From Escherichia coli (GTDB lineage: Bacteria > Pseudomonadota > Gammaproteobacteria > Enterobacterales > Enterobacteriaceae): a DNA stretch of 64,000 bases. The position numbers were made by a program, and so were the translations under genes. The stretch lies in the NCBI RefSeq assembly GCF_022846255.1, contig NZ_AP025682.1; one strand, written 5' to 3'. The notes under the pieces are model-generated. The model was not told the DNA's origin, ran no database searches, and was given only the letters and a program-made list of their open reading frames with translations. The stretch's first letter is position 1; each line of letters starts with the position of its first letter. Shown here piece by piece: positions 5,173 to 38,227 of this stretch.

Positions 5173-5183
5173 GTATTACTCCA

Positions 5184-20829: not shown

Positions 20830-22257
20830 CTAGCGCGACTGCTGATTATATTCATCATCGCGTTGATAAGCTTCATCATTCGGCTGCTCCGGAACCGACC
20901 GAAGTCGATACTCTTCATCCTGGCTCACCGCCTGTTCAGCCAAATCCGGATTAATCTCGCGTTTAATTTCTACCCCTAAACCGCGAAACGCTTCTGCCTG
21001 CGCCAGCACATTTCCGCGACCTGAAGAGAGTTTTTTCATTGCCTGGCGATAGTTATCCTGCGCTTTGTCGAGACTTTGACCAATCGCGGACATGTCATCG
21101 ACAAACAAACGCATCTTGTCGTACAGCTTGCTGGCACGATCGGCGATTTGCTGGGCGTTGCGGCTTTGATGCTCATAACGCCACAGGTTGGCGATAGTGC
21201 GCAGCGCCACCAGCAGCGTAGTCGGGCTAACCAGCATGATATTGTTTTTCAACGCTTCGGTGATCAGCTCCGGCTGACGGTCAAGCGCCAGTAAAAAAGC
21301 GGGTTCAACGGGAATAAACATCAGCACGTAATCCAGAGTTCGCAGCCCCGGCAGCTGTTGATAATCTTTGCGTCCCAGCAAACGGATATGGTTACGTACC
21401 GACGCGATATGTTCCTGTAGCGCGCTTTCACGGGAGTAGTCATCTTCGGCGTTGAAATAGCGTTCATAGGCGACCAGCGTCATTTTGGCGTCGATCACCA
21501 CATCTTTTCCCTGCGGCAACCGCACGATGACATCCGGCTGCATCCGCGAGCGGGCGTCATTTTCGATGCTGACCTGGGTTTCATATTCATACCCTTCACG
21601 CAGACCGGAAGCCTCCAGCACCCGCGTCAATACTACCTCGCCCCAGTTGCCCTGGGTTTTATTGTCGCCTTTCAGCGCACGCGTCAGGTTGATCGCTTCC
21701 TGGGCCATCTGGGCGTTGAGTTGCTGGAGGTTGCGGATTTCGTGAGTCAGGGTATGACGTTCTTGGGCTTCTTTACCAAAGCTGTCCTGGACCTGACGGC
21801 GGAAACCATCCAGTTGTTCACGCAACGGCGACAAAAGACTGTTCAGACTCTGGCGATTTTGCTCATCAACCCGACGATTACTGTGTTCAAAAATACGGTT
21901 GGCAAGGTTTTCAAATTGCTCACTGAGGCGCTGTTCGCTGTTGATCATCTGGCGAATTTTATCGTCAGCGTGTTGCTGTGCGGCTTCCATCCGCGTGGTC
22001 ACTTCACGCAGATCGGCCTCCAGCGAGGTGTTAATACTTTGCAGGCTGCGCACTTCGTTATTGAGCAATTCACACTCTGCGCGCCAGTGCTCGCTTTGGG
22101 TAATTTGTTGTTTTGCCGCGCTTAACTCCGCGACCATCTCTTCACGTTCAGCTAATTGCTCGGCTTTTTGCTGCGCATGTTGATAACTGGCAAACAGCCA
22201 GCCAATTGCCACACCCACCAATGCAATAACTGCGTAAACCATGATTGAGAAATCCAC
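20830..22257 (-). CDS. rmuC: DNA recombination protein RmuC
   Basis: 475-aa ORF with N-terminal TM segment and long coiled-coil region. Confidence 0.92.
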   Translation of the reverse strand: MDFSIMVYAVIALVGVAIGWLFASYQHAQQKAEQLAEREEMVAELSAAKQQITQSEHWRAECELLNNEVRSLQSINTSLEADLREVTTRMEAAQQHADDKIRQMINSEQRLSEQFENLANRIFEHSNRRVDEQNRQSLNSLLSPLREQLDGFRRQVQDSFGKEAQERHTLTHEIRNLQQLNAQMAQEAINLTRALKGDNKTQGNWGEVVLTRVLEASGLREGYEYETQVSIENDARSRMQPDVIVRLPQGKDVVIDAKMTLVAYERYFNAEDDYSRESALQEHIASVRNHIRLLGRKDYQQLPGLRTLDYVLMFIPVEPAFLLALDRQPELITEALKNNIMLVSPTTLLVALRTIANLWRYEHQSRNAQQIADRASKLYDKMRLFVDDMSAIGQSLDKAQDNYRQAMKKLSSGRGNVLAQAEAFRGLGVEIKREINPDLAEQAVSQDEEYRLRSVPEQPNDEAYQRDDEYNQQSR

Positions 22258-22377
22258 AACGCCTCCTGACGCAACAACTTACCCGCACAAAATAGAATTG
22301 TGCTGTACAAACGTCCAGTTTGAAAGAAGTTTCCTGCGAGGCGCTACGCAAAACGATCGTTAATTTTCATTATTTTA

Positions 22378-22411
22378 TCCCACAATATGAGATGGAGTTT
22401 ATATTGTGGGA
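22378..22411. promoter_or_regulatory. perfect 11-bp inverted repeat (TCCCACAATAT-N12-ATATTGTGGGA) in the rmuC / IclR divergent region
   Basis: Seen directly in sequence, 62 bp upstream of the IclR-family regulator ATG; candidate operator. Confidence 0.5.
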
Positions 22412-22473
22412 TATATCACCTTTTCCCCACGTCATTATGTGGAACACTTCAGCAATATCATCAGGAGAAACGT

Positions 22474-23241
22474 ATGGCAGAAACCTCTTCAACCACCGCA
22501 GGCGCACAAACGTTATTACGTGGACTGGCGGTTCTTAATGCTGTTTATAACGGCTGCCATGACCTAAAAAGTATCGGCGAGTTCACCGGCACGACCCGGA
22601 GCACAACCCATCGTTTAGTCACCGTTCTGGTGGAACAACGCTACCTGCGCCATGTCCCAACGCAGGGCTACCAACTGGGTGCCAAACTGATCGAATTTGG
22701 TGCCAGAGCACTGGAAAGCACCTCGCTGTACGAAATTGCCCAGCCCGTTTTGCAACGCCTTGCCCGTTACACCCTGGACACCGTGCATCTGGGGATCGTT
22801 GAAGGCGACGAAGTGCTGTATCTGGAGAAGATCAACAGTCAGCGCGGGCTGGAAATGCGCTCACGCCCAGGCCATCGCATGCCACTGGCAATCACCGGCA
22901 TCGGCAAGGCATTGATCCTCAACCGAACAGAAGAAGAGTGGCGCACGCTGTTTAAGACCTGTGGTGATGAAACAAAACTGGGCACATTTATTCAGAACAT
23001 GCGTCGTTATGCCGCCAGTGGTTTTGCTTTTGATCTGGAAGAGAACGAGCCGACTATCCGTTGCGTTGCAGCGCCGGTTTACAACGCCCGGGATGAAATT
23101 GTGGCGGCTATTTCTGTCGCCAGTACCACCACGTATATGTCGCTGGCGCGTCTGGAAGAACTGGCACCTTACGTCAAATCCTGTGCAGAAGAGATATCCG
23201 CTGAACTGGGCTGGGGTAAGCACGTCCGCAAAGATAAATAA
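22474..23241 (+). CDS. IclR-family transcriptional regulator
   Basis: ORF from 22387; start taken at MAETSSTTAGAQTLLRGLAVLNA (RBS AGGAGA). N-terminal wHTH and C-terminal effector-domain pattern of IclR family. Confidence 0.85.
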   Translation: MAETSSTTAGAQTLLRGLAVLNAVYNGCHDLKSIGEFTGTTRSTTHRLVTVLVEQRYLRHVPTQGYQLGAKLIEFGARALESTSLYEIAQPVLQRLARYTLDTVHLGIVEGDEVLYLEKINSQRGLEMRSRPGHRMPLAITGIGKALILNRTEEEWRTLFKTCGDETKLGTFIQNMRRYAASGFAFDLEENEPTIRCVAAPVYNARDEIVAAISVASTTTYMSLARLEELAPYVKSCAEEISAELGWGKHVRKDK

Positions 23242-23264
23242 ACCATGATTAAAGGAAACGACTA

Positions 23265-24269
23265 ATGCCGGGAGCACCCTCATTTATTGCCCTGGACTGG
23301 GGAACGTCATCGCTTCGGGCATGGCGTTTTGGCGAATCACCAAATCCACAAGAAAAACGTGAATTCCCCTGGGGGATCATGAAATTACCCTCCCAGGCAG
23401 CAACACGTGAGGACGCTTTCCACGATACGTTTTTACGTGTCTGCGGCGACTGGCTGGCACAAACCCCATGCCCGGTACTGGCTTGCGGCATGCTCGGCAG
23501 TGCGCAAGGGTGGCAATCAGCAGCTTATTTACCTTGCCCGGTCACTCTCGAGGGTCTGGCGAAGCAGTTGACGCCTGTTATCCACCAGCAGCAGACAATG
23601 CTGCATATCATTCCTGGCGTGATTAAAGAAGGTGAAATGCCCGAAGTGATGCGTGGCGAAGAAACACAAATCTTCGGTGCTATCTCGATGGAACCGGCCC
23701 TGCAAAACGCGATCCATCAGGGTATGCCAGTGCTGATAGGCTTACCCGGCACACATGCGAAATGGGCAGTAGTTGAAAACAACACCATTACCGATTTCCG
23801 AACCTTTATGACGGGCGAGTTATTTGATGTTTTATCCCGCCATTCGATTCTCGGTGCCACCATGCATCCTGGAGATGAACCGCACTGGGATGCCTTCACC
23901 CACGGGCTGACAGCAGCACAAGAGCATCATCAGACCGGATTATTATCGACGCTGTTTTCGACCCGTTCGCGCCTGCTGACCAGTAATCTTACGTCGTCCT
24001 CGCAGGGGGATTACCTTTCCGGATTACTGATAGGCCATGAATTATGTGGTCTGGCATCCAGTTTGCTACGTGATTTACCCGCCACAACACCGATCGCCTT
24101 AATCGGTAGCGCAAATCTGAACAGCCGCTATTCACAAGCATTCAGCCACGTTTTTCCCGACAGACAGATACACGCCATTCCTAATGCCACTGAACAGGGA
24201 TTATGGCGAATCGCCCACGCTGCCGGGTTACTGTCCACCAACGCCAGGGAATGTACCCATGCCATTTAA
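23265..24269 (+). CDS. 2-dehydro-3-deoxygalactonokinase-family sugar-acid kinase (DgoK-like)
   Basis: 334-aa ORF; motifs IALDWGTSSLRAW, MRGEETQIFGA, DFRTFMTGELF, LSGLLIGHEL parallel E. coli DgoK as I recall it. Confidence 0.82.
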   Translation: MPGAPSFIALDWGTSSLRAWRFGESPNPQEKREFPWGIMKLPSQAATREDAFHDTFLRVCGDWLAQTPCPVLACGMLGSAQGWQSAAYLPCPVTLEGLAKQLTPVIHQQQTMLHIIPGVIKEGEMPEVMRGEETQIFGAISMEPALQNAIHQGMPVLIGLPGTHAKWAVVENNTITDFRTFMTGELFDVLSRHSILGATMHPGDEPHWDAFTHGLTAAQEHHQTGLLSTLFSTRSRLLTSNLTSSSQGDYLSGLLIGHELCGLASSLLRDLPATTPIALIGSANLNSRYSQAFSHVFPDRQIHAIPNATEQGLWRIAHAAGLLSTNARECTHAI

Positions 24270-24888
24270 TACGCTTTTGCAAAAAACCGGGTTAGTCGCC
24301 ATTTTACGCGGCGTGAAACCGGATGAGATTGTCGCCATCGGTGAAAAACTGTACGCCGCCGGATTCCGCCTGATTGAGATTCCTATGAACTCGCCGGAGG
24401 CGTTGCAAAGTATCAGTATACTGCGCGACGCCCTGCCTAAGGACTGCCTGGTCGGAGCCGGAACTGTGCTTTCGGTAGAGCAGGTGGTTGCGGTTAAAGA
24501 GGCTGGGGGCCAGATTATCGTGATGCCGCATTGCGATACTGCGGTGATCCGTCGCGCCCGTGCGCTGGGTATGTATTGTGCGCCTGGCGTCGCCACGCCC
24601 ACCGAAGCCTTTGCTGCCATTGAACATGGTGCTAATGCCATCAAGCTGTTCCCGGCTGAACAAATTACGCCAGAAGTTACCAAAGCCTGGCGTGCGGTTA
24701 TTCCACAATCCGTTCCGATGTTACCGGTTGGCGGTATCACACCGGAAACCATGGCGCGTTATCTGAGCCACGGCGCAAACGGCTTTGGCCTCGGTTCTGC
24801 GCTATATCGCCCCGGCATGACGCCAGAGCAAGTCTATGAAAATGCAGTACTGTTTATGAACGCATGGAACAATTTAAATAGCAACTAA
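24259..24888 (+). CDS. 2-dehydro-3-deoxy-6-phosphogalactonate / KDPG-type aldolase (DgoA-like)
   Basis: Start taken at MPFNTLLQKTGLVAILRGVKPDE (209 aa); motifs ILRG, GAGTV, GxATPTEAF, PVGGIT as in DgoA/Eda aldolases; start overlaps the kinase stop by 11 nt. Confidence 0.82.
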   Translation: MPFNTLLQKTGLVAILRGVKPDEIVAIGEKLYAAGFRLIEIPMNSPEALQSISILRDALPKDCLVGAGTVLSVEQVVAVKEAGGQIIVMPHCDTAVIRRARALGMYCAPGVATPTEAFAAIEHGANAIKLFPAEQITPEVTKAWRAVIPQSVPMLPVGGITPETMARYLSHGANGFGLGSALYRPGMTPEQVYENAVLFMNAWNNLNSN

Positions 24889-24912
24889 CTGATAAATAAG
24901 GATATAAAAGCA

Positions 24913-25887
24913 ATGATAAAACATCTTACCTTACCGAAAAAAATGGCTGCAATGGTACTTCTTGCAGGCGCTGCCCTCAGCATTGCGCCTGTACAGGCAG
25001 CCTCCTGGCCAACCAAACAGATCGAGTTAGTCGTTCCCTACGCTGCCGGAGGCGGTACGGATCTGGTTGCCCGTGCCTTTGCTGATGCCGCCAAAAACCA
25101 TTTACCCGTCAGCATCGGGGTTATCAATAAACCTGGCGGAGGCGGTGCTATCGGCCTGAGTGAAATCGCCGCTGCCCGCCCTAACGGTTACAAAATTGGT
25201 TTAGGCACGGTTGAACTGACCACCCTTCCCAGCCTCGGAATGGTGCGTTTTAAAACCAGCGACTTTAAACCCATTGCCCGTCTGAATGCGGATCCGGCTG
25301 CTATCACAGTCCGTGCCGATGCGCCGTGGAATAGCTATGAAGAATTTATGGCTTACTCCAAAGCGAATCCCGGAAAAGTACGCATTGGTAACTCAGGCAC
25401 CGGAGCTATCTGGCATCTGGCGGCAGCTGCACTGGAAGACAAAACGGGCACAAAGTTTTCTCATGTCCCGTATGACGGCGCAGCCCCTGCCATTACAGGC
25501 CTGTTAGGCGGGCACATTGAAGCGGTTTCCGTAAGCCCAGGAGAAGTTATCAACCATGTGAATGGCGGCAAGCTGAAGACACTGGTAGTGATGGCGGATG
25601 AGCGAATGAAAACCATGCCTGACGTCCCGACGTTAAAAGAGAAAGGCGTTGATCTCTCCATCGGCACCTGGCGCGGCCTGATTGTGTCGCAAAAAACGCC
25701 GCAGGATGTGGTGGATGTTCTGGCAAAGGCAGCAAAAGAGACGGCTGAAGAGCCTGCATTCCAGGATGCACTGCAAAAGTTGAATCTCAACTATGCATGG
25801 CTTGACGCTGCCAGCTTCCAGACCCAAATCAGCGAACAGGAAAAGTACTTTGACGAGTTGCTGACTCGCCTGGGCCTGAAAAAATAA
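24913..25887 (+). CDS. tripartite tricarboxylate transporter substrate-binding protein (TctC/Bug family), periplasmic
   Basis: 324 aa with signal peptide (MIKHLTLPKKMAAMVLLAGAALSIAPVQA) and typical Bug-family length. Confidence 0.8.
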   Translation: MIKHLTLPKKMAAMVLLAGAALSIAPVQAASWPTKQIELVVPYAAGGGTDLVARAFADAAKNHLPVSIGVINKPGGGGAIGLSEIAAARPNGYKIGLGTVELTTLPSLGMVRFKTSDFKPIARLNADPAAITVRADAPWNSYEEFMAYSKANPGKVRIGNSGTGAIWHLAAAALEDKTGTKFSHVPYDGAAPAITGLLGGHIEAVSVSPGEVINHVNGGKLKTLVVMADERMKTMPDVPTLKEKGVDLSIGTWRGLIVSQKTPQDVVDVLAKAAKETAEEPAFQDALQKLNLNYAWLDAASFQTQISEQEKYFDELLTRLGLKK

Positions 25888-25900
25888 ACCTGAGGTACGG

Positions 25901-26410
25901 TTGATGAACACAAAACAGTCTGTTGCTCAACTCGCCGTACCGCACCGCAAGCGCCTTTCATCAACGATGGTGGTGGCGCTGTTACTTTGTGTGGTTGCTG
26001 GCGCGGTGATGATTAATGCCGCTGATTTTCCAGCAACTGCCATTGAAACGGATCCCGGTGCAAGTGCCTTCCCTACCTTCTATGCCTGTGCCCTGATTGT
26101 GCTCGCTGTCTTGCTGGTGATACGCGATCTTTTGCAGGCAAAACCAGCCTCTTGCGCCAACGCACAGGAAAAACCGGCATTCAGGAAAACAGCAACAGGA
26201 ATTGCGGCAACCGCGTTTTATATTGTGGCGATGAGCTACTGCGGTTATCTCATTACTACTCCTGTTTTCCTCATCGTCATTATGACGTTGATGGGCTACA
26301 GGCGATGGGTACTCACACCGGGTATTGCGCTGCTGTTAACGGCAATCCTCTGGTTGCTGTTTGTCGAAGCGTTACAGGTGCCATTGCCTGTCGGCACATT
26401 TTTCGAATAA
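25901..26410 (+). CDS. tripartite tricarboxylate transporter small membrane subunit (TctB-like)
   Basis: 169-aa four-TM protein between TctC-like and TctA-like genes. Confidence 0.75.
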   Translation: MMNTKQSVAQLAVPHRKRLSSTMVVALLLCVVAGAVMINAADFPATAIETDPGASAFPTFYACALIVLAVLLVIRDLLQAKPASCANAQEKPAFRKTATGIAATAFYIVAMSYCGYLITTPVFLIVIMTLMGYRRWVLTPGIALLLTAILWLLFVEALQVPLPVGTFFE

Positions 26411-26422
26411 CAGGGGCCAGCA

Positions 26423-27913
26423 ATGTTTGAAAGTGAACTTTTAACTCAGGGTTTTTCGACATTACTCAATAATCCTCAGGCGCTGCTGTTTGCCACTTTT
26501 GGGGTGATGCTGGGTATTGTGATTGGCGCTTTGCCTGGTCTGACAGCGACCATGGGTGTGGCGATTTTGCTGCCTTTCACCTACGGCATGGAGCCTGTTT
26601 CTGGATTGTTGATGATTTGCGGCGTCTTTTTTGGTGGCGTCTACGGTGGTTCTATCACCGCAATTTTGCTCAAAATTCCCGGAACGCCTGCCGCCGCAGC
26701 CACCGCTATTGATGGTTATGAGCTGACGAAACAGGGAAAAGCAGGGCTGGCATTGAGTGCCGCCACGTTCTCTTCCTTTAGTGGCGGAACGCTCAGCATT
26801 ATCGTGCTGATGTTTCTCTCTCCGGTACTTGCCAGTTGGGCGCTGAAATTTAGTGCCTCGGAGTCCTTCGCCCTGGCAACCTTCGGACTGAGCATTATTG
26901 CCAGTATTTCCGGTGAGTCGCTGATTAAGGGGCTGATTGCCGGGGTTGGCGGATTGCTGATCGCAACGATAGGCCTTGATCCAATGGGCGGTTTTCCACG
27001 GTTTACAGGTGGATTTGTGGAGCTGATGAATGTGCCATTTATCCCGGTGATGATTGGTTTATTTGCTGCTTCAGAAGCATTCCGCTCTATGGAGCAAAAC
27101 CAGCAAATTCGTCGGGGCGCGAAGGTGGCTATCGGCAGTCTGTTACTGCCCTGGCAAACACTACGCCGCATCGCATTAACCATTTTGCGCTCATCAGGAT
27201 TAGGGGTTTTTATCGGCATGATCCCCGGTGCGGGGGCGGATATTGCAGCTTTTGTTGCCTATAACGAAACTCGTCGTTTCAGTAAGACACCAGAAAACTT
27301 TGGTAAGGGTGAAATTAAAGCTGTGGCCTCCTGTGAGGCAGGCGCGAATGGCTGCACCGGTGGCGCATTGTTACCTATGCTGACGCTGGGGATCCCTGGC
27401 GATGCGGTAACCGCCATCATGCTGGGCGCGTTAACGTTACAGGGAATGCAACCAGGCCCGCTGATGTTTACCGACCACGGCGATATGGTTTATACACTGT
27501 TTGTCGGCATGATCTTTTGTTACTTCATGCTGCTAGTTCTTGGACTGCTCTCTTTGAAAGTCATCGGTAACGTGGTGAAGATCCCCGGCAATATTCTCAC
27601 ACCGATGATCCTCGCACTTTGTGTGGTCGGGACTTATGCGTTGAACAATAGCCTTTTTGATGTTGGCATTATGCTGATTGCAGGCGTGGTGGGCTATTTC
27701 ATGCAGAAAGGAGGATATCCGGCATCACCCGTAGTGCTGGCATTGATTATGGGGCCAATGGCGGAAAGTAATTTTCGCCGTGCGCTGTCGCTTTCTGGTG
27801 GGTCACTCGACTTTCTGTATACCCGACCGATCACTCTGGCATTGCTAACTCTGGCAGCCTTTACGCTACTGACGCCAATAATCCGCAAAATAATGCGTTT
27901 ACGGCGTCAGTAA
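26423..27913 (+). CDS. tripartite tricarboxylate transporter large permease (TctA-like)
   Basis: 496-aa polytopic membrane protein with Gly-rich TctA-type segments. Confidence 0.82.
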   Translation: MFESELLTQGFSTLLNNPQALLFATFGVMLGIVIGALPGLTATMGVAILLPFTYGMEPVSGLLMICGVFFGGVYGGSITAILLKIPGTPAAAATAIDGYELTKQGKAGLALSAATFSSFSGGTLSIIVLMFLSPVLASWALKFSASESFALATFGLSIIASISGESLIKGLIAGVGGLLIATIGLDPMGGFPRFTGGFVELMNVPFIPVMIGLFAASEAFRSMEQNQQIRRGAKVAIGSLLLPWQTLRRIALTILRSSGLGVFIGMIPGAGADIAAFVAYNETRRFSKTPENFGKGEIKAVASCEAGANGCTGGALLPMLTLGIPGDAVTAIMLGALTLQGMQPGPLMFTDHGDMVYTLFVGMIFCYFMLLVLGLLSLKVIGNVVKIPGNILTPMILALCVVGTYALNNSLFDVGIMLIAGVVGYFMQKGGYPASPVVLALIMGPMAESNFRRALSLSGGSLDFLYTRPITLALLTLAAFTLLTPIIRKIMRLRRQ

Positions 27914-27920
27914 CTGATAT

Positions 27921-27950
27921 CGCTCCCCGAAGTTGGGGAGCGTTTTTTTA
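27921..27950 (+). terminator. rho-independent terminator after the tctA-like gene (overlaps the udp stop on the opposite strand)
   Basis: CGCTCCCC-GAAGTT-GGGGAGCG stem-loop followed by TTTTTTT. Confidence 0.75.
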
Positions 27951-28712
27951 TTTCAGCAGACGACGCGCCGCTTCCACCACGATTTTCACCGCATGGCTTT
28001 CGGTTTGTTTCATCGTCTCAGCATTCGGGATCTCTTGCTGGGTGCGGTTAACGATAACCCCCGCTACCATACCGGCACGCAGGCCCTGACTTGCACACAT
28101 GGTCAGCAGGGTTGCAGATTCCATTTCATAGTTCATTACGCCCATCGCCTGCCACTCTTCCATAGAACCTTTAAAGTGACGAACTACGCGACCAGAGTAA
28201 GTATCGTAACGTTCCTGACCAGGGTAGAAGGTATCAGAAGAAGCTGTCACGCCAACGTGAGTCGTCGCGCCAATGGATTTCGCAGCTTCAACCAGCGCAG
28301 TCGTACATTCGAAATCAGCGACAGCCGGGAATTCCAGCGGTGCGAAGTGCAGGCTCGCACCATCCAGACGAACAGACGCCGTGGTAACCAGGACATCGCC
28401 AACATTAATATGCGGCTGAATAGCGCCCGTTGTGCCGATACGCAGGAAGGTGCGAATGCCCAGCTGTGCCAGCTCTTCAACAGCAATAGAGGTAGACGGG
28501 CCGCCGATACCGGTAGAGCAGACGATAACAGGTTTACCATCCAGCTCTGCACGCCAGGTGGTGAATTCGCGATGAGATGCCAGCTTAACCGGCTTATCCA
28601 TCAGCGCGGCGATCTTTTCCACACGATCCGGGTCGCCAGGGACGATGGCAAGCGTAGCCCCTTGTAAATCGTTTTTAGTGAGGCCGAGATGAAAAACATC
28701 AGACTTGGACAT
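27948..28712 (-). CDS. udp: uridine phosphorylase
   Basis: Product from [33 protein letters not shown]; the ORF track starts 2 codons upstream. Confidence 0.95.
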
Positions 28713-30039: not shown

Positions 30040-30708
30040 ATGACGCAATCCATTTTTCAGGCTCAACCCTTTGAATTACCTTTTGATCCGCGCACAACTG
30101 CACTGGTCATGATCGACATGCAGCGTGACTTTGTCGAAGCAGGGGGCTTCGGTGAGGCACTGGGCAATGATGTTTCACTGGTACGCACGGCTATCGCACC
30201 ATGTACAGAGGTGCTGGCAGCCGCACGTCAAAAAGGAATTATGGTTATTCATACTCGTGAAGGCCATCGTGCAGACTTAAGCGACTGCCCGCCAGCCAAA
30301 CTGACGCGCGGCGGAAAAACCTTTATTGGTGAACCAGGACCGATGGGACGCATTCTGGTCAGAGGTGAAGCAGGTCATGACATCATTCCTGAACTGTACC
30401 CGGTGGCAGGCGAACCGGTGATTGATAAGCCTGGCAAAGGCGCGTTTTATCAAACCGACTTACATCTGATTTTGCAAAACCACGGTATCAAGACGCTGAT
30501 AGTTTGTGGTGTTACAACCGAAGTTTGCGTAACCACCACCGTGCGCGAAGCAAATGATCGTGGCTATGAATGCATTATCCCGGAAGATTGTGTCGGCTCC
30601 TATTTCCCGGAATTCCAGAAATACGCCCTCGAGATGATCAAAGCACAAGGTGCCATTTTCGGTTGGGTTACTGATTCCAAAGCCATTATTGCAGGCCTGG
30701 AAGGCTAA
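30040..30708 (+). CDS. isochorismatase-family cysteine hydrolase (RutB / N-carbamoylsarcosine amidase-like amidohydrolase)
   Basis: 222 aa; D-K-C triad context (VMIDMQRDF ... IVCGVTTEVCVTTT) typical of the isochorismatase-like hydrolase fold. Confidence 0.8.
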   Translation: MTQSIFQAQPFELPFDPRTTALVMIDMQRDFVEAGGFGEALGNDVSLVRTAIAPCTEVLAAARQKGIMVIHTREGHRADLSDCPPAKLTRGGKTFIGEPGPMGRILVRGEAGHDIIPELYPVAGEPVIDKPGKGAFYQTDLHLILQNHGIKTLIVCGVTTEVCVTTTVREANDRGYECIIPEDCVGSYFPEFQKYALEMIKAQGAIFGWVTDSKAIIAGLEG

Positions 30709-30713
30709 CACCG

Positions 30714-31574
30714 ATGGTACAGGTTACGCTTTGCGCATCGTCGTTGGGATATCTTTTCCCGCAGAATGAAACGCAAGATTTACGTCTACATAGCGCTTTT
30801 AAACATGCGGTAAATCTGTATTCAGACGCGGGAACATTCATCACTCTGTTGTGTGCGCAAACGTATCTGAATCTCCCTGATGCAGCCAGAGTCTGGCTAC
30901 CTGAATGTTGGGACTGGCGAAGAGAGATTGCCCATTCAGATCCCATTCAGTTAACCCCAGGCTTACTGCGGACACCTCGATTTTGTGTGGCGCTCGAAAA
31001 CGCAACGCTCTGGCAGTCGCCATTTGTGGGGGGAATGCTGACACTTGAGGCATTCCCTTTGGTTTTCCAGCACTACCCAACGATGGCATCGCAACGGCTT
31101 TTATTTTGTCTGGAACATAACGTTCAAAGCACATTGCACCTGCCGGATAGTCTCACGCACCAGGGATTAGCGATTATGGAGCATCCAGATGCGCTGGAAC
31201 GCCAGGTGCCACAACTGATCGGCTTTGGTAAAGGCTTAACGCCCGATGGAGATGACTATTTGTTGGGCTATCTGGCAGCACTCTGGTTATGGCAACTCCC
31301 TGCACCACTTGCCGATCATCAATACCGGTTGCAGCAGGTAATTGATCAACATGCGCACAACACCACGGATATCAGTCGTCATTATCTGGAGCGTGCGCTT
31401 CAGGGACATTTTTCAGAACCGATTTGCCAGTTACTCGCACAACTGGTTGGGAGTGCATCGGCAATGACAATCGCATCCTGTGCAGAACAGGTCATGCAAT
31501 TTGGCGCAACGTCAGGAGTAGATTGCCTTGCAGGAATGCTGCATGGCTTTCGAACCCTGAACACCATGAATTGA
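30714..31574 (+). CDS. hypothetical protein, possibly YlbF/DUF2877-like
   Basis: 286-aa ORF 6 nt after the hydrolase stop; family guess rests on synteny with FdrA-like and DUF1116-like genes, not on motif recognition. Confidence 0.55.
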   Translation: MVQVTLCASSLGYLFPQNETQDLRLHSAFKHAVNLYSDAGTFITLLCAQTYLNLPDAARVWLPECWDWRREIAHSDPIQLTPGLLRTPRFCVALENATLWQSPFVGGMLTLEAFPLVFQHYPTMASQRLLFCLEHNVQSTLHLPDSLTHQGLAIMEHPDALERQVPQLIGFGKGLTPDGDDYLLGYLAALWLWQLPAPLADHQYRLQQVIDQHAHNTTDISRHYLERALQGHFSEPICQLLAQLVGSASAMTIASCAEQVMQFGATSGVDCLAGMLHGFRTLNTMN

Positions 31575-31668
31575 TTTCAACCTTTTCTCCCGTAGCCCGT
31601 TTATGGGGCTACACGGGGATGCTTTGCCCGAATTTTGCTATCGGGCGGAATGAAACAGGCGTAACAGC

Positions 31669-33228
31669 ATGAAAGTTAAATATAAAGTTTTCAGTAATCT
31701 TTATCAGGACTCAGTTTCTCTGATGCAGATTTCCGCGCAAATCAGCAAGTTGCCCGGTATTCAACAGGCCTCGGTCGTCATGGGAACACCCAATAATCTC
31801 GAGCAATTGAGCGATGCGGGTCTGGGTAACGAAATCAACGCCAGTCCCAATGATTTAGTGATTGCAGTCATGGGTGAAGAAGATATTTGCAATGAAGCAC
31901 TGGTACTGGCCCAGCAACGTCTGACCAGCAAACCCGATGATGAAACGGATAGTGGCATTAAAACACCGGAAAAGGTCAGCCTGGAAATGGCACTGGAAGC
32001 CGAGCCCGAAGCCAACCTGGCACTCATTTCTGTACCGGGAGACTACGCCGCCGCCGAAGCAATTAAAGCGTTAAACCTCGGAATGAACGTGATGATGTTC
32101 AGCGATAACGTCAGTATCGTGCAGGAAAAATCCATCAAAACGCTTGCCCGAGAACGTCAGCGCATCGTAATGGGACCTGACTGTGGAACCGCCATTGTTA
32201 ACGGCATTCCGTTAGGCTTCGCTAATGTGGTGAAACGCGGAGCAATTGGTGTTATTGGCGCGTCAGGCACCGGGCTACAGGAAGTGACTTGCCGAATCGA
32301 CCAGCTCGGAGCGGGTATTTCTCAGGCGTTGGGAACAGGCGGACATGATCTCAGTGAAGAGATTGGTGGAATATCGATGCTCTTCGCTTTAGATGCGCTG
32401 GCGCAAGACGATGAAACTCGCGTGATTGTGCTTATTTCAAAACCGCCTTCACCGATCGTTGCCCGGACTATTCTGGAGCGTGCCGAGGCTTGTGGAAAAC
32501 CCGTGGTGGTGAATTTCCTCGGTGCGAATCCGCATGATCTGGCACGTCCCAATATCACCGCGGCCACCACACTTGCCAGCGCCGCAAATATCGCCGTGGC
32601 GTTACTGAATGATCAACCACTTCCGACTATCGAGACCGAAATTTCCTGCGACGATCTCACAATGTTACAAAACGCCTGCCAGCGCCTGCCAGCCCATCGC
32701 CAGGCGATACGCGGTGTTTTCGCCGGAGGAACCTTCTGCTACGAAGCGCAACTTATCTGCCAACAAAAGGGATTCATCGCAGCCTCCAATACGCCAGTTG
32801 CGGGTAATCGTGCTCTGGCAAATATCTGGCAAATCGAAGATCACACGTTGATCGATATGGGCGACGATGATTTCACCCGTGGCAAACCGCATCCAATGAT
32901 CGACCCGACTCTGCGCAATCAACGTCTGCTCAACGAACTCAACGACTCACACACTGCCGTCGTGTTATTCGACCTGGTACTTGGTTATGGCGCTTCCACG
33001 ACGCCTGCCAGCGAATTACTGGACCAACTTTCACACATCGACATGAATAACGCACCGTTGCTGATTGCGCACGTTTGCGGAACGGAAGCTGATCCGCAAA
33101 TACGCAGTCAGCAGATAAGCGCACTACAAAATGCAGGGGTCATCATCGCCAGCAGCAATGCACAGGCGGCGCTATGGGCCAGCACCGTTGCACAGACTCA
33201 GTTGCAGAAAAAGGGGCTAAACGCATGA
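31669..33228 (+). CDS. FdrA-like protein (acyl-CoA synthetase/succinyl-CoA synthetase alpha-like, NAD(P)-binding)
   Basis: 519 aa; shares FQDSVSLM, VMGTP, LALISVPG.YAA, NVMMFSDNV, MGPDCGT, GVIGASGTG, GKPHPMIDPTLRNQ with E. coli FdrA as I recall it. Confidence 0.82.
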   Translation: MKVKYKVFSNLYQDSVSLMQISAQISKLPGIQQASVVMGTPNNLEQLSDAGLGNEINASPNDLVIAVMGEEDICNEALVLAQQRLTSKPDDETDSGIKTPEKVSLEMALEAEPEANLALISVPGDYAAAEAIKALNLGMNVMMFSDNVSIVQEKSIKTLARERQRIVMGPDCGTAIVNGIPLGFANVVKRGAIGVIGASGTGLQEVTCRIDQLGAGISQALGTGGHDLSEEIGGISMLFALDALAQDDETRVIVLISKPPSPIVARTILERAEACGKPVVVNFLGANPHDLARPNITAATTLASAANIAVALLNDQPLPTIETEISCDDLTMLQNACQRLPAHRQAIRGVFAGGTFCYEAQLICQQKGFIAASNTPVAGNRALANIWQIEDHTLIDMGDDDFTRGKPHPMIDPTLRNQRLLNELNDSHTAVVLFDLVLGYGASTTPASELLDQLSHIDMNNAPLLIAHVCGTEADPQIRSQQISALQNAGVIIASSNAQAALWASTVAQTQLQKKGLNA

Positions 33229-34649
33229 ATACCTTATTTAATCAGCCTTTGAAGGTCGTGAACGCGGGACTACACAGTTTTGCTGACAATATTCAACATG
33301 CCGGGGGAAGCGCAATTGCACTCAACTGGCAGCCACCAGCACAAGGCGATATTGACGCTGGATTGGATCTGGCATCGTTGCTACGTCATCCCCTGGTAGA
33401 AAATGCCAACCAAATCGCCATGACACGTTATCTCGAAGCACAGCCCGTGCTGGTGGATGTCATGCTCGCTAAAGAGGCCATTCCAGCAATGGCTGAACAA
33501 AAACGTATTTTGCACTCTGGCCCGCCGATTGCCTGGGAAGAGATGTGTGGTCCGGTAAAAGGGGCGATTATTGGTGCCATGCTGTACGAAGGTTGGGCCA
33601 CCAGCCAGCAAGACGCTGAAAACCAAATAAACGCAGGCGAAATCGACCTTGCCCCTTGTCATCATTATCACGCGGTTGGCCCAATGGCAGGCATCATCAG
33701 CCCGTCGATGCCGTTATGGGTGGTAGAAAACAAAACCAACGGCCATCGTACTTTTAGCAATTTCAATGAAGGGCTGGGTAAGGTTCTCCGTTTTGGCGCC
33801 AATAACGATGAAGTTCTCAATCGTCTGGCCTGGATGCGCGATGAACTGGCGCCGGCAATGAAAGCAGCAATCGCACAACACGGCGAGCTGGAACTCAAGC
33901 CATTAATGGCGCAGGCGCTGCATATGGGGGATGAAGTTCATAACCGCAATGCTGCCGCTACCGGTTTGCTGATTAAGCGCCTGCTCCCGGCATTGCTGGC
34001 CTGCTCTCTTCCACAGGAACATATCCAGCGCGTCGTGGCATTTATCACCGGTAACGATCACTTCTTCCTCAATCTTTCGATGGCCGCCTGTAAAGCAATG
34101 ATGGATGCCGCCGCCAATGTACCGTTCAGTTCAATGGTTACGGTGATGGCGCGTAACGGGGTGAATTTTGGTATTCGGCTTTCCGGTACTGGCGATCGCT
34201 GGTTCCAGGCTCCTGCCAATGCCGTTGAAGGTCTGTTCTTCCCCGGATTTGGCGTCGACGATGCCGCTGCTGACCTGGGTGATAGCGCAATTACTGAAAC
34301 CGCAGGTGTGGGTGGCTTCGCGATGGCGTCATCTCCAGCGATCGTCAAATTTGTGGGAGGCACCCCTGCCGATGCCACCAATAACAGCCGTAGGATGCAA
34401 GCAATCACCCTCGGTGGTAACCCCGCATTTACACTTCCTGCCCTCAATTTTGCCCCCACCGCAGCAGGGATTGATGCGCGTAAAGTGACCGATCGCGGCA
34501 TTTTACCGGTCATCAATACGGGTATCGCCCACAAACAAGCGGGGGTCGGGCAAATTGGTGCCGGGATCACCACTGCGCCGATGGCCTGTTTTGTCGCCGC
34601 TGTACGTGCACTGGCGGAGATCGTCGCAAAGGAGAACCATCATGGTTAA
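33225..34649 (+). CDS. DUF1116-family protein (YlbE-like)
   Basis: Start taken at MNTLFNQPLKVVNAG, whose ATG overlaps the fdrA-like stop (ATGA); ORF track starts 17 codons upstream. Family call by synteny and length. Confidence 0.7.
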   Translation: MNTLFNQPLKVVNAGLHSFADNIQHAGGSAIALNWQPPAQGDIDAGLDLASLLRHPLVENANQIAMTRYLEAQPVLVDVMLAKEAIPAMAEQKRILHSGPPIAWEEMCGPVKGAIIGAMLYEGWATSQQDAENQINAGEIDLAPCHHYHAVGPMAGIISPSMPLWVVENKTNGHRTFSNFNEGLGKVLRFGANNDEVLNRLAWMRDELAPAMKAAIAQHGELELKPLMAQALHMGDEVHNRNAAATGLLIKRLLPALLACSLPQEHIQRVVAFITGNDHFFLNLSMAACKAMMDAAANVPFSSMVTVMARNGVNFGIRLSGTGDRWFQAPANAVEGLFFPGFGVDDAAADLGDSAITETAGVGGFAMASSPAIVKFVGGTPADATNNSRRMQAITLGGNPAFTLPALNFAPTAAGIDARKVTDRGILPVINTGIAHKQAGVGQIGAGITTAPMACFVAAVRALAEIVAKENHHG

Positions 34650-35598
34650 GCCACTGGCTGTCGTCGCGGTTGGCGGCAATGCGCTCATTCAGGACGAGCA
34701 ACGCAATAGTATTCCCGATCAATATGTTGCAGTGATGGAAAGCGTGCAACATATCGTTGATATGGTTGAAGCCGGATGGGACCTGGTACTAACCCACGGT
34801 AATGGCCCGCAGGTGGGCTTTATTCTGCGCCGCTCTGAACTCGCCAGTAACGAAGTTTCTCCGGTTCCACTTGATTACGCCGTGGGTGATACACAAGGTG
34901 CAATTGGCTACATGTTCCAGAAAGCGCTGCATAACGAATTGGCTCGCCGTGGCATAAACAAACCGGTAATTGCCCTGGTGACACAAACGCGAGTCAGCCC
35001 ACATGACGATGCTTTCGCCAGCCCCAGTAAACCAATTGGCGCGTTTCTCGATGAAGCAACGGCCCAACAACGCCAACAACAACTCGGCTGGACGCTGATG
35101 GAGGACGCCGGGCGTGGTTGGCGGCGTACAGTTCCCTCTCCTGCACCACTGGAAATTATTGAGCACGACACCATCGCTCACCTGGTGCGCCAGGGATATC
35201 TGGTTATTGCCTGCGGCGGCGGCGGTATTCCGGTGGTGCGAGACGGGCAACAACTGAAAGGTGTGGAAGCCGTGATCGATAAAGATCTGGCCTCCGCGCT
35301 GCTCGCCAGTCAGTTAGGCGCAGATCTGCTGGTGATCCCCACCGGTGTAGAAAAAGTAGCGATTAACTTTGGTACACCACAACAACAGTGGCTCGACGCT
35401 ATCAGCGTTGCCGAAGCGCAAACGCTGTTGCGGGAAGGTCAGTTTGGTGTCGGCAGTATGCAACCCAAAGTGGAAGCCATTGTTGATTTCATCAATGCCA
35501 GCCAGCAACAAGGCAAACAGGCCAGCGGCCTGATTACTTCACCGCAAACCATAAAAGCAGCCCTGGCGCATCAGAGCGGTACATGGATAACCCTTTAA
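34642..35598 (+). CDS. carbamate kinase-like (amino acid kinase family, YqeA/ArcC-like)
   Basis: Start MVKPLAVVAVGGNALIQDEQRNS with RBS AAGGAGAA; amino-acid-kinase fold motifs (VAVGGNAL, THGNGPQVG, VIACGGGGIPV); overlaps the upstream stop by 8 nt. Confidence 0.82.
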   Translation: MVKPLAVVAVGGNALIQDEQRNSIPDQYVAVMESVQHIVDMVEAGWDLVLTHGNGPQVGFILRRSELASNEVSPVPLDYAVGDTQGAIGYMFQKALHNELARRGINKPVIALVTQTRVSPHDDAFASPSKPIGAFLDEATAQQRQQQLGWTLMEDAGRGWRRTVPSPAPLEIIEHDTIAHLVRQGYLVIACGGGGIPVVRDGQQLKGVEAVIDKDLASALLASQLGADLLVIPTGVEKVAINFGTPQQQWLDAISVAEAQTLLREGQFGVGSMQPKVEAIVDFINASQQQGKQASGLITSPQTIKAALAHQSGTWITL

Positions 35599-35614
35599 TT
35601 CTCTGGAGAACACA

Positions 35615-36004
35615 ATGACTACAACGCTTTTAGCCGTTAACGGAACGCTGATGCGCGGCCTGGAACTCAACCCAAATATGCAAAAAGCGGGCGGTATTTT
35701 TGTCCGTGAAGACCGAACTGACGCCCATTACCGGTTGTGGAGTATTAATGATCGCCATCCGGGAATGATTCGCGTGAATGAAGGAGGAACACACGTCGAC
35801 GTAGAAATTTGGCAATTACCGCTGGCCAGTTTTGCCGCTCTGTTAATGAGCGAACCCGCTGGGCTGGCAATTGGCAAAATCAAACTTGCCGATGGTAGCG
35901 AAGTGCTGGGCGTACTGGCAGAAAACTGGCTGACCGAAGGCCAACGGGAAATTACAGAACTGGGTAGCTGGCGCAAATACACCGGGCATTTTCATACTGT
36001 GTAA
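35615..36004 (+). CDS. small protein, probably gamma-glutamylcyclotransferase-like (AIG2/GGCT fold)
   Basis: 129 aa; family call is tentative, based on size and general resemblance to GGCT-like domains. Confidence 0.5.
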   Translation: MTTTLLAVNGTLMRGLELNPNMQKAGGIFVREDRTDAHYRLWSINDRHPGMIRVNEGGTHVDVEIWQLPLASFAALLMSEPAGLAIGKIKLADGSEVLGVLAENWLTEGQREITELGSWRKYTGHFHTV

Positions 36005-36029
36005 CGCGCATTTATAAAGGGAACATACT

Positions 36030-37253
36030 ATGCGTAAAAAAGAAGAGAATCTGAATACGGCATCAGGATTGCGTATTGCCATGATTTTGCTGGGTATTGC
36101 CGTCACACCTGTGCTGTTGTCATCCTCAAGCCTCGGCAATCAACTTTCCAGCGGCAGTTTAATTAGCGTCGTATTGTTAGGCGGCGTCATTCTGACCTTA
36201 CTTTCAGCCATCACCATTAGCGTGGGAGAAAAAGCCCGCCTGCCAACGTATGGCATTGTGAAATATTCGTTTGGCGAAAAAGGGGCCATCGCCATTAACA
36301 TTTTGATGGCGATAAGTCTGTTCGGCTGGATTGCCGTTACCGCCAATATGTTTGGTCATTCGGTACATGACTTACTGGCTCAACATGGACTGGAAGTTCC
36401 ACTGGCACTGTTAGTGGCGGCTGGCTGTGTCATTTTTGTCGCCTCTACGGCATTTGGCTTTGCCGTTCTGGGAAAAATTGCCCAGGTTGCCGTGCCGGTT
36501 ATCGCGCTGGTGCTGTGTTACATCCTCTATGTGGCAACCCATACCGAAGTGGCAGTACCAGCGGCGATTGTGGAGATGAATACAGGTGTCGCCGTTTCCA
36601 CCGTTGTTGGCACCATTATTGTGCTGGTTGCCACACTGCCTGATTTCGGTAGTTTTGTGCATAACCGCAAACATGCGCTGATTGCCGCAGGCGTGACGTT
36701 TCTGGTTGCCTACCCTCTGCTCTACTGGGCGGGTGCAACGCCGAGCGCCATTAGTGGTCAGGGATCTTTACTGGGTGCGATGGCGGTATTCGGTGCGGTT
36801 CTGCCTGCGGCGCTGTTGTTGATTTTCGCCTGCGTCACCGGTAACGCGGGCAATATGTTCCAGGGCACGCTGGTGGTTTCCACACTGCTTACCCGCTTTC
36901 CCAAATGGCAGATTACCGTGGCGCTGGGTATCCTTTCCGCCATCGTAGGCAGTATGGATATTATGGCGTGGTTTATTCCGTTTCTGCTGTTCCTGGGTAT
37001 CGCCACGCCACCCGTTGCCGGAATTTATATCGCTGACTTTTTCCTTTATCGCCGTAATGGCTATCAAGAGTCAGTGTTAGCCCAGGAGTCACAGATTAAA
37101 GTGCTGACATTCGCAGCATGGATCATAGGCGCAGCGGTTGGCTTTATGACCGTAAAAGGCTTATTCACCCTGACGACGATCCCTTCGGTAGACTCGATTC
37201 TGGTGGCATGTATCGCGTATGCGATTCTCAGTCGGGCAAGTCAACACCGCTAA
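36030..37253 (+). CDS. NCS1-family nucleobase permease (cytosine/purine permease CodB-like)
   Basis: 407-aa, ~12-TM protein with CodB-like length and hydrophobicity pattern. Confidence 0.7.
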   Translation: MRKKEENLNTASGLRIAMILLGIAVTPVLLSSSSLGNQLSSGSLISVVLLGGVILTLLSAITISVGEKARLPTYGIVKYSFGEKGAIAINILMAISLFGWIAVTANMFGHSVHDLLAQHGLEVPLALLVAAGCVIFVASTAFGFAVLGKIAQVAVPVIALVLCYILYVATHTEVAVPAAIVEMNTGVAVSTVVGTIIVLVATLPDFGSFVHNRKHALIAAGVTFLVAYPLLYWAGATPSAISGQGSLLGAMAVFGAVLPAALLLIFACVTGNAGNMFQGTLVVSTLLTRFPKWQITVALGILSAIVGSMDIMAWFIPFLLFLGIATPPVAGIYIADFFLYRRNGYQESVLAQESQIKVLTFAAWIIGAAVGFMTVKGLFTLTTIPSVDSILVACIAYAILSRASQHR

Positions 37254-37330
37254 TTCCTGGGTATACTCAGGCAATGATTACGGCTGAATCTGGAGAGATT
37301 CAGCCACTTTACCACTGACCAGGGAGCCTT

Positions 37331-38227
37331 ATGTTCATCTCAGACGAAACGCTTCGTGTTATTCATCTGGTCGCCAGACACCAGAGCATTACCACCGCAG
37401 CCGAGCAGTTAAATAAAGTCCCTTCCGCCATCAGTTACACCATCAAGAAAGCGGAAGAGAGCCTGGGCGTTGAACTGTTCATTCGTAAGGGACGCTATAT
37501 TGAATTATCGCCAGCGGGAAGTTACTTCATCGAACATAGCAAAACTATTCTTGGCGACCTGGAAGCATTAAAGCGCAACACAGTGCTGATTCACGATGGT
37601 ATTGAGCGTGAACTGACAATAGCGGTAAACAATATTATTCCTGGTGATTTGCTGGTGGCATTTATTCGAGATTTTGAACGGCAATTCACATCAACAACAC
37701 TGACGGTAGATCTTGAGGTATACAACGGCTGCTGGGATGCGCTGTACAGTAAGCGTGCTGATCTGGTCTACGGTGCTCCTCATGCAGTACCAAGCAGTGA
37801 AGGCATCATTAGCGAACCGGTCGGACAAATGGAATGGGATTTTGTCGTCAGCCCACTCCACCCACTGGCAGCGAAGCGGCATCCATTAGAAAACAGTGAA
37901 TTGCGTCATTATCCAGCGGTTTGTATCCGCGATACCTCCGTTAACTTCCCCCCGATGCAAGCCTGGTTGTTGGAAGGACAAAAACCCATTTTTGTTCCTG
38001 ACTTCGCTACGGCAATCGCCTTAATAGAACAAAACGTCGGTATTGGTTATATTCCACATCATCTGGCATTGCCGTTATTGAACAGCGGTAAATTGCTTAA
38101 AAAGCCAATGCGCGAACATAAACACGCCACCAAGTTATTTCTTGCCGCTCGTTCCGATGGTATGGGCAAAGCCTGTCAGTGGTGCATAGAATATTTAAGA
38201 AATCCGCAATTAATTTTCTGTTCCTGA
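37331..38227 (+). CDS. LysR-family transcriptional regulator
   Basis: 298 aa; N-terminal HTH (LRVIHLVARHQSITTAAEQLNKVPSAISYTIKKAEESLGVELFIR). Confidence 0.88.
   Translation: MFISDETLRVIHLVARHQSITTAAEQLNKVPSAISYTIKKAEESLGVELFIRKGRYIELSPAGSYFIEHSKTILGDLEALKRNTVLIHDGIERELTIAVNNIIPGDLLVAFIRDFERQFTSTTLTVDLEVYNGCWDALYSKRADLVYGAPHAVPSSEGIISEPVGQMEWDFVVSPLHPLAAKRHPLENSELRHYPAVCIRDTSVNFPPMQAWLLEGQKPIFVPDFATAIALIEQNVGIGYIPHHLALPLLNSGKLLKKPMREHKHATKLFLAARSDGMGKACQWCIEYLRNPQLIFCS

Follow-up and report, generated by a model that had tools for sequence, protein, structure and literature searches.

We analyzed a 64,000-nucleotide (nt) stretch of Escherichia coli DNA (contig NZ_AP025682.1 of assembly GCF_022846255.1; hereafter "the window"), in which six co-directional open reading frames (ORFs) on the plus strand are flanked by two minus-strand genes, rmuC (20830-22257) and udp (27948-28712). 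The ORFs are real and occupy a 5.6-kb islet at 22354-27947. The first gene (22474-23241) encodes an IclR-family regulator of 255 amino acids (aa) with an N-terminal helix-turn-helix domain (HTH_IclR, PF09339) and a C-terminal IclR_C domain (PF01614). It is followed by a 334-aa DgoK-family sugar-acid kinase (23265-24269; Pfam DGOK, PF05035, the 2-dehydro-3-deoxygalactonokinase family), predicted to be a 2-keto-3-deoxy-galactonate kinase, and by a 209-aa class I aldolase (24259-24888; Pfam Aldolase, PF01081, and NF006600) of the type acting on 2-keto-3-deoxy-6-phosphogalactonate (KDPGal). The last three genes encode a TctC/Bug-family periplasmic solute-binding protein of 324 aa (24913-25887; Pfam TctC, PF03401), a TctB small membrane subunit of 168 aa (25904-26410, with the start annotated by RefSeq; Pfam TctB, PF07331), and a TctA large permease subunit of 496 aa (26423-27913; Pfam TctA, PF01970). 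The Pfam assignments are precomputed matches for identical proteins in public E. coli genomes. They bear out an earlier reading of this locus from its letters alone (the first-pass annotation), which had named an IclR-type rather than GntR-type regulator, a DgoK-like kinase, a DgoA-like aldolase, and a TctCBA transporter. All components of a tripartite tricarboxylate transporter (TTT) are present on adjacent genes, and RefSeq names agree; the cassette is, as far as its predicted proteins tell, a full structural member of the TTT family, and carboxylate uptake is predicted.

The six genes are tightly packed, with intergenic distances of 23, -11, 24, 16, and 12 nt. The aldolase ORF overlaps the kinase ORF by 11 nt and is translationally coupled to it. 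An AGGAG ribosome-binding site lies 7 nt upstream of iclR, and RefSeq annotates the same start. At the other end, the plus strand carries an intrinsic terminator (27921-27952), the strongest terminator-like site of the region: a hairpin at 27921-27942, whose 9-bp stem has 7 G-C pairs, is followed by the T-run TTTTTTTATT and abuts the udp stop codon. The genes from iclR to tctA are predicted to be transcribed as a single operon. Neither a DgoD-type dehydratase nor a major facilitator superfamily (MFS) transporter such as DgoT nor a GntR regulator was found among the ORFs of the block, its RefSeq genes, or the Pfam matches, which also agrees with the first-pass annotation. A search of the region against Rfam gave no match at E values up to 0.1, and thus no structured RNA or riboswitch, and PADLOC returned no defense system there.

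The kinase is about 35-37% identical to the native DgoK of E. coli and 47-48% identical to DgoK of Burkholderiales, and it matches the solved DgoK structures 3r1x and 3t69 (E about 1e-37). Of the residues that 14 DgoK-like proteins share without exception, it retains all 51, among them those of the DWG(T/S), GMxGS, RGEExQ, and PGTHxKW motifs. A neighbor-joining tree placed the enterobacterial cassette kinases in one clade, sister to the Burkholderiales kinases, with K-12 DgoK outside. The enzyme is predicted to phosphorylate 2-keto-3-deoxy-D-galactonate (D-KDGal) in an ATP-dependent reaction. The aldolase scores 321.7 bits on NF006600, the model for the KDPGal-aldolase subfamily (cutoff, 207), and falls below the cutoff on every model for aldolases of 2-keto-3-deoxy-6-phosphogluconate (KDPG). 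It is 46% identical to K-12 DgoA, and its best solved relative is the E. coli KDPGal aldolase, 2v81. Stereoselectivity for KDPGal versus KDPG has been traced experimentally to Ala11 and Ile12 on strand 1 and Val154 on strand 7, in E. coli DgoA numbering (PMC4915726). The cassette aldolase carries the Schiff-base Lys129, the catalytic Glu40, and the stereoselectivity residues Ala14, Ile15, and Val157; these five do not vary among the 16 sequences compared, which come from cassettes, Burkholderiales, and K-12. Since the KDPGal-type residues are kept, the lower pathway is predicted to handle the galacto (D-threo) epimer.

The signal peptide of the binding protein, TctC, ends in VQA/AS. The closest solved structure is 4x9t, a TctC protein from Polaromonas with unknown ligand (E 1.6e-99), and the next is 25hk (E 2.7e-63). 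Judging from matching residue numbering, 25hk is probably TTT-C, the Vibrio sp. C42 binding protein for unsaturated alginate oligosaccharides (PMC13390454). At the 11 positions implicated in binding by TTT-C, the E. coli protein is identical at 7 (Gly48, Thr49, Asp50, Pro128, Gly210, Thr252, and Arg254), has a conservative Tyr43 for Phe19 at the eighth, and differs at the remaining three (Ala44, Ala191, and Pro192). It has the GGGTD, PGE, and GTWRG pocket motifs in common with 25hk; the first of these lacks the Pro of the BugD-type loop (GGPTD), as does TTT-C.

A scan of one genome per species found 22 TctC orthologues in Comamonadaceae and Cupriavidus, at 52-60% identity and with no adjacent tctBA; two weaker matches (47-48%) in Bordetella and Polaromonas metagenome-assembled genomes (MAGs) also have no adjacent tctBA. 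ORFs in the high-G+C Comamonadaceae loci were called with a third-position G+C filter. In both annotated Variovorax loci, genes for a galactarate dehydratase (>900 bits; cutoff, 731) and a short-chain dehydrogenase/reductase (SDR) are found directly upstream of the TctC orthologue, and one of the two has a lactonase-like gene, a TRAP-type (tripartite ATP-independent periplasmic) transporter, and a GntR regulator nearby as well. To the orphan proteins of Comamonadaceae encoded beside galactarate dehydratase, the cassette TctC is 55-60% identical. This neighborhood suggests that TctC belongs to a sugar-acid branch of its family. Residues conserved within each group set the cassette proteins apart from the orphans. 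In the two ligand-binding loops these are positions 44 (A/S in cassettes, Q in orphans), 45 (A, P), 163 (T, N), 165 (A, S), and 188 (D, Q); further ones are 69 (G, V), 98 (G, L), and 115 (T, Y). Some of these positions may not line the pocket. Given these differences, the ligand of the cassette TctC has likely shifted from that of the galactarate-cluster proteins. Some Comamonadaceae have, next to the orphan orthologue, a second TctC gene and then genes for large GGDEF/EAL (cyclic-di-GMP) proteins (L011, 10057-15151; L016, 10044-11411), a hint that some orphan binding proteins feed signaling rather than transport.

Upstream of iclR, at 61 nt from its start codon, is the palindrome TATCCCACAATAT-N12-ATATTGTGGGATA. 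The first-pass annotation had noticed it at 22378-22411; it extends slightly further, over 22376-22413, with 13-nt arms (22376-22388 and 22401-22413) that are 100% complementary. A related motif, with the consensus ATCCCATATATnGGGAT...TTATATTnTGGGAT, precedes iclR in ten cassettes from at least six genera, and the spacer around it is not conserved. Because this cis element travels with the cassette directly before iclR, we predict that it is the operator of the cassette regulator, and the E. coli palindrome is probably bound by the IclR protein encoded next to it. A 12-nt stretch inside tctB (26217-26228) repeats the right half-site exactly (TTTATATTGTGG) and is probably meaningless, with about one match expected by chance in 5.8 kb. 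The best NCBIfam matches of the IclR protein are BhcR and KdgR, both below the cutoff. As no equivalog threshold is reached, the regulator cannot be assigned to a named one.

The K-12 junction shows what the islet adds. In K-12 and DH5alpha, rmuC and udp are neighbors 140 bp apart, so the adjacency given in the first-pass annotation, and the absence of the block there, hold. That annotation had placed the block at 22258-27950. Its first 96 nt (22258-22353) align with the K-12 spacer and are common to E. coli genomes that lack the block, whereas the rest is block-specific; divergence from K-12 runs from there to the udp stop codon, and the islet replaces 44 bp of the K-12 spacer. The full cassette is present in 1,452 of 5,426 complete E. 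coli genomes (27%), always at 99% identity or more. A further 3,973 match the 96-nt stub only, at 88 to 96% identity in every genome without the cassette, and one genome gave no match. The probiotic strain A0 34/86 carries it, as do sequence type 131 (ST131), other extraintestinal pathogens, and numerous clinical isolates. Native dgo genes occur in 5,019 of the 5,426 genomes, so that at least 1,045 of the 1,452 carriers (1,452 + 5,019 - 5,426) also have native dgoKA. Strain DETEC-P881 (NZ_CP116100.1) has the full cassette, but the match to its native dgoK-dgoA region is split in two and spans only 65% of the query. This strain may be a natural example of a carrier that lacks an intact native pathway.

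Eleven cassettes keep the same six genes; they represent at least seven genera and no fewer than three sites in the genome. The rmuC-udp site is occupied in Escherichia whittamii, Klebsiella indica, Klebsiella spallanzanii, Buttiauxella warmboldiae, Pseudocitrobacter cyperus, and a sequencing-run contig (L044); cassettes at other sites were found in Brenneria corticis, Klebsiella oxytoca, a metagenome contig (L045), and a soil Proteobacteria MAG. None of the eleven has a dehydratase gene within the at least 1.5 kb searched on each side (5-8 kb for most), by tblastn with K-12 DgoD in E. whittamii, K. indica, and the soil MAG and by calls of MR_MLE (enolase-superfamily) genes at the other cassette loci. 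All six proteins are intact across the cassettes, at 35-91% identity, which indicates that purifying selection acts on the two enzymes and the transporter alike. TctA is the best conserved, at 72-91% across cassettes outside Escherichia and 99% in E. whittamii. The kinase evolves fastest among close relatives (92% identity between E. coli and E. whittamii, against 97-99% for the other five proteins); across genera it is 42-59% identical, and only TctB falls below that range. K. oxytoca (L037, 4728-13652) and the unrelated metagenome contig (L045, 1851-10959) have an extended nine-gene version, with proteins 48-92% identical between the two. Two genes are added upstream: a divergently transcribed one for an Fe-dependent alcohol dehydrogenase, and one for a very divergent kinase of the DGOK type that is 17-23% identical to other DgoK proteins and keeps RGEETQ. 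Downstream there is a second IclR gene. These extra genes may point to additional substrates.

The first-pass annotation had called the block inserted, and this part of it is doubtful. Between E. coli and K. indica or Buttiauxella, the cassette transporter (TctA, 86-91% identity; TctC, 79-87%) is about as conserved as the flanking RmuC (79-82%) and YsgA (83%); the aldolase (60-68%), IclR protein (64-72%), and kinase (48-59%) are less so. A transporter divergence close to that of flanking housekeeping genes fits an old resident that was repeatedly lost, including in most E. coli. The signs of a genomic island are missing: the G+C content of the islet (0.48-0.55) is like that of its flanks, no integrase, transposase, or other mobility gene appears in the ORF list or RefSeq annotation of the block, no direct repeats flanking the islet were found, and the same site is occupied in four genera. 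PLSDB holds no plasmid copy. The islet thus seems to have resided here for long and to have been kept patchily, which a recent insertion into the B2 group fits less well. For the difference from K-12, loss in that lineage is no less likely than gain in the present one. Replacement by homologous recombination through the flanks is also conceivable.

The regulator type, which the first-pass annotation had contrasted with the GntR-type DgoR, turned out to be ordinary once Burkholderiales were considered. We examined four loci, from Burkholderia cepacia, Acidovorax, Pararobbsia, and Xylophilus. Their iclR-dgoK-dgoA(-dgoD) clusters are orthologous to the first half of the cassette, with the same gene order (regulator, 54% identity; kinase, 47-48%; aldolase, 58%), and iclR-dgoK-dgoA is the standard module in Burkholderiales; an IclR regulator is therefore normal for dgoKA modules of this type. 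In B. cepacia and Pararobbsia, iclR-dgoK-dgoA is followed by a dehydrogenase and an epimerase, plus a lactonase in Pararobbsia, and the B. cepacia cluster also has an ATP-binding cassette (ABC) sugar transporter. The arrangement looks like a classical De Ley-Doudoroff galactose cluster, and a linked dehydratase is absent from both clusters. Acidovorax and Xylophilus have dgoK-dgoA-dgoD. To this, Xylophilus adds a divergent iclR and a TctC gene; its DgoD scores 709 bits on NF010624, and its IclR protein, aldolase, kinase, and TctC are 54%, 58%, 47%, and only 29% identical to those of the cassette. The Burkholderiales clusters differ from the cassette in being linked to galactose dehydrogenase, a lactonase, and an ABC sugar transporter, or to DgoD, so that they start from galactose or galactonate, and the only TctC linked to any of them is not orthologous to the cassette TctC. 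A TTT binding protein was evidently recruited to dgoKA modules more than once. The cassette is best filed as a Burkholderiales-type iclR-dgoK-dgoA module joined to a sugar-acid TTT, without a dehydratase. The first-pass annotation could not assign the pairing of a TTT with DgoKA to a characterized system. We found no such system either, but the pairing itself is not unique, since Xylophilus has it with its non-orthologous TctC.

Within E. coli, the obvious comparison is dgoRKADT. Cassette and native operon use the same lower-pathway families, DgoK and DgoA, with the same catalytic and stereochemical residues, and the predicted end products are the same. Identity to the K-12 proteins reaches only 35% for the kinase and 46% for the aldolase, however, and the two systems coexist in most carriers. 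DgoD, the DgoT symporter, and the GntR-type DgoR were tested for and are absent; a TTT importer and an IclR protein stand in their place. The cassette is therefore not a canonical dgo operon.

Given this gene content, the intact active-site residues, and the conservation of the unit and its motif across genera, we are confident that the six genes form a self-contained catabolic operon for a sugar acid, which the TTT would import and which phosphorylation and aldol cleavage would turn into pyruvate and glyceraldehyde 3-phosphate. Which compound is transported and which effector acts on the regulator we infer. Among acidic C6 sugar derivatives, free D-KDGal is our leading candidate substrate, and we regard the chances of its being correct as evenly balanced. 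In the proposed mechanism, periplasmic TctC would capture the acid and pass it to the TctBA membrane unit for uptake; the DgoK-type kinase would phosphorylate it at C6; and the DgoA-type aldolase would cleave the resulting KDPGal into pyruvate and D-glyceraldehyde 3-phosphate. The IclR protein would sit on the conserved palindrome before its own gene until released by the keto-deoxy acid or its phosphate. Carriers would thereby gain an inducible route for a compound that K-12 metabolizes inside the cell but cannot take up inducibly.

Several lines of evidence favor D-KDGal. It is the only compound needing exactly these three functions, and the eleven cassettes without a dehydratase point the same way. 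Native DgoK and DgoA share a transcript with native DgoD, so that any compound passing through DgoD would meet them anyway and have no use for a second kinase and aldolase. The retention of the cassette pair beside native dgo argues for entry below DgoD, by a compound that leaves DgoR uninduced. The intact DgoK residues, the KDPGal-type aldolase, the tight packing ahead of one terminator, and the sugar-acid branch to which TctC belongs also count in favor. KdgR senses 2-keto-3-deoxy acids, and we counted the relatedness of the cassette IclR protein to it in favor of D-KDGal. Finally, K-12 fails to induce uptake of 2-keto-3-deoxy-hexonates supplied from outside (PMC11219438), which leaves a real physiological gap to fill. 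The first-pass annotation had already proposed import of a ready-made 2-keto-3-deoxy acid; this was a reasonable suggestion, which the present data strengthen and the Burkholderia and Pararobbsia clusters weaken.

Other observations weigh against this assignment. The iclR-dgoK-dgoA clusters of Burkholderia and Pararobbsia have no linked dgoD and yet must use one encoded elsewhere. The nearest relatives of TctC are found in galactarate or uronate clusters, not in galactonate clusters. A simple consensus scan of the plus strand found no canonical sigma-70 promoter, and our literature search returned no experiment bearing on the substrate. We also could not identify an abundant natural extracellular source of D-KDGal, in the gut or otherwise. 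As a candidate source, we considered aldehyde reduction of 5-keto-4-deoxyuronate (DKI) from pectin or glycosaminoglycans, a reaction that would suit the Fe-alcohol dehydrogenase found beside some cassettes, and rejected it for D-KDGal: by stereochemical reasoning the product would be L-KDGal, because the threo pair keeps its D/L label on renumbering.

The main competing explanation is high-affinity scavenging of D-galactonate, in which the TTT would import galactonate, host DgoD would dehydrate it, and the cassette kinase and aldolase would add capacity or a different regulation. The orthologous IclR, DgoK, and DgoA of Xylophilus do sit with a true galactonate dehydratase and a TctC gene, and the Burkholderia and Pararobbsia clusters show that dgoKA can work with an unlinked dgoD. 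Such a partner would be at hand, given the 5,019 of 5,426 E. coli genomes with native dgo genes, and D-galactonate is a recognized gut and tissue metabolite (PMC10507020). What makes this explanation unlikely is that the dgoD-linked TctC of Xylophilus is only 29% identical to the cassette protein and that a kinase and aldolase redundant beside the co-transcribed native set have stayed intact across genera; moreover, 0 of 11 cassettes recruited a dehydratase.

We think it similarly improbable that the substrate is a different C6 acid, such as 2-keto-3-deoxy-D-gluconate (KDG), L-KDGal, an aldarate, or a uronate-derived keto-deoxy acid. This would require unlinked host enzymes, or a kinase and aldolase whose specificity has shifted from D-KDGal. 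The aldolase, with all KDPGal stereochemical determinants and a score above the curated KDPGal-aldolase threshold, speaks against it, as does the grouping of the kinase with bona fide De Ley-Doudoroff kinases of Burkholderiales; the minimal six-gene unit, too, recurs without any extra enzyme. It is the binding protein that keeps this alternative in view: its nearest relatives flank a galactarate dehydratase, an SDR, and a lactonase, its structural relative 25hk is probably the Vibrio TTT-C for unsaturated uronate oligosaccharides, and it has smaller residues at several group-specific positions. The rapid evolution of the kinase would fit as well, and the Fe-alcohol dehydrogenase and divergent DGOK-like kinase of K. 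oxytoca and L045 hint at wider substrates. A citrate or tricarboxylate importer like Salmonella TctCBA that merely neighbors a spare dgoKA pair would explain the family name and the Pfam families, which are those of the citrate TTT, but we consider this very improbable, as the six genes form one packed unit behind a single regulator and ahead of a single terminator, stay together in eleven cassettes at no fewer than three sites, and include a TctC with GGGTD instead of the BugD-type GGPTD and with close relatives in sugar-acid clusters.

The proposed logic for D-KDGal has a parallel in the KdgR-KdgT-KdgK-Eda system of enterobacteria, in which an IclR-family sensor, a dedicated keto-deoxy acid importer, a kinase, and a class I aldolase serve KDG. 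The parts differ: KdgK is PfkB-type whereas the cassette kinase is a DGOK protein, KdgT contrasts with a TTT, the substrate is the other C4 epimer, and the genes are scattered rather than in one operon. The Vibrio sp. C42 TTT resembles the cassette in using a TctC-family protein for a uronate-type acid (PMC13390454). It belongs, however, to an alginate utilization locus with lyases and takes an oligosaccharide ligand, whereas the cassette has no lyase or hydrolase, and its TctC differs from TTT-C at positions 44, 191, and 192. Salmonella TctCBA and Bordetella BctCBA have the same three-component architecture, but they are under two-component control and transport tricarboxylates; the cassette has an IclR regulator, and its partners and relatives point to a sugar acid.

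Publications of 2010 and 2012 already record the islet, as a set of functionally uncharacterized ORFs. Zdziarski et al. (2010) listed the kinase and aldolase in a region specific to uropathogenic E. coli in strain 83972 (PMC2928814). Li et al. (2012), describing the 16-kb tkt1 island of avian pathogenic E. coli (APEC) O1 and of extraintestinal pathogenic E. coli (ExPEC) of group B2, mentioned "6 ORFs with unknown functions" (PMC3349570). A transcriptome table has one line for tctA (PMC4464170). Beyond these two descriptive mentions and the table line, we found no functional study of the islet in the full-text literature. Neither a system from E. coli nor a keto-deoxy acid ligand figures in a 2018 review of TTT systems (PMC5812351).

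The islet is a small chromosomal difference from K-12 that is nonetheless common across the species. Carbon sources that only certain strains can use are a leading reason that some E. coli lineages, ST131 and further extraintestinal pathogens with this block among them, colonize so well. In the strain-specific metabolism of E. coli, the cassette marks a well-defined and widespread gap that is open to direct testing, if not one that would startle a specialist. Should the proposal be correct, it would place a new nutrient on the pan-metabolic map of E. coli, give research on E. coli and on TTT systems a tractable, genetically simple transporter with a sugar-acid ligand, and provide a case of a lower-pathway module uncoupled from its dehydratase that harvests a pathway intermediate from the environment. 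Tentatively, and with less than even confidence, we suggest a larger picture: the cassette would be the first dedicated inducible system for uptake and catabolism of a free galacto 2-keto-3-deoxy-hexonate and the first E. coli TTT with an assignable role, an ancient Enterobacteriaceae locus that most E. coli have lost and that ExPEC-rich lineages have kept for cross-feeding on keto-deoxy acids leaked by gut or plant microbes.

Two features of the surrounding DNA are worth recording. A second accessory block lies between ysgA and metE (30040-38227; metE, 38321-40582, minus strand), where K-12 has metE directly after ysgA. It codes for a cysteine hydrolase/isochorismatase, a DUF2877 protein, FdrA, a DUF1116 protein, a carbamate kinase, a cytosine permease, and a LysR regulator, and corresponds to the ysgA-proximal half of the ExPEC 16-kb "tkt1 island" (PMC3349570). 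The tkt1/ptsG/hxlB/tssD half, present in strain A0 34/86, is missing from the window. At the right junction of the islet, the boundary (27945-27953) falls exactly on the udp stop codon: K-12 udp ends ...CTG CTG TAA, whereas the gene in the window ends ...CTG CTG AAA TAA, so that Udp has 254 aa here and 253 aa in K-12.

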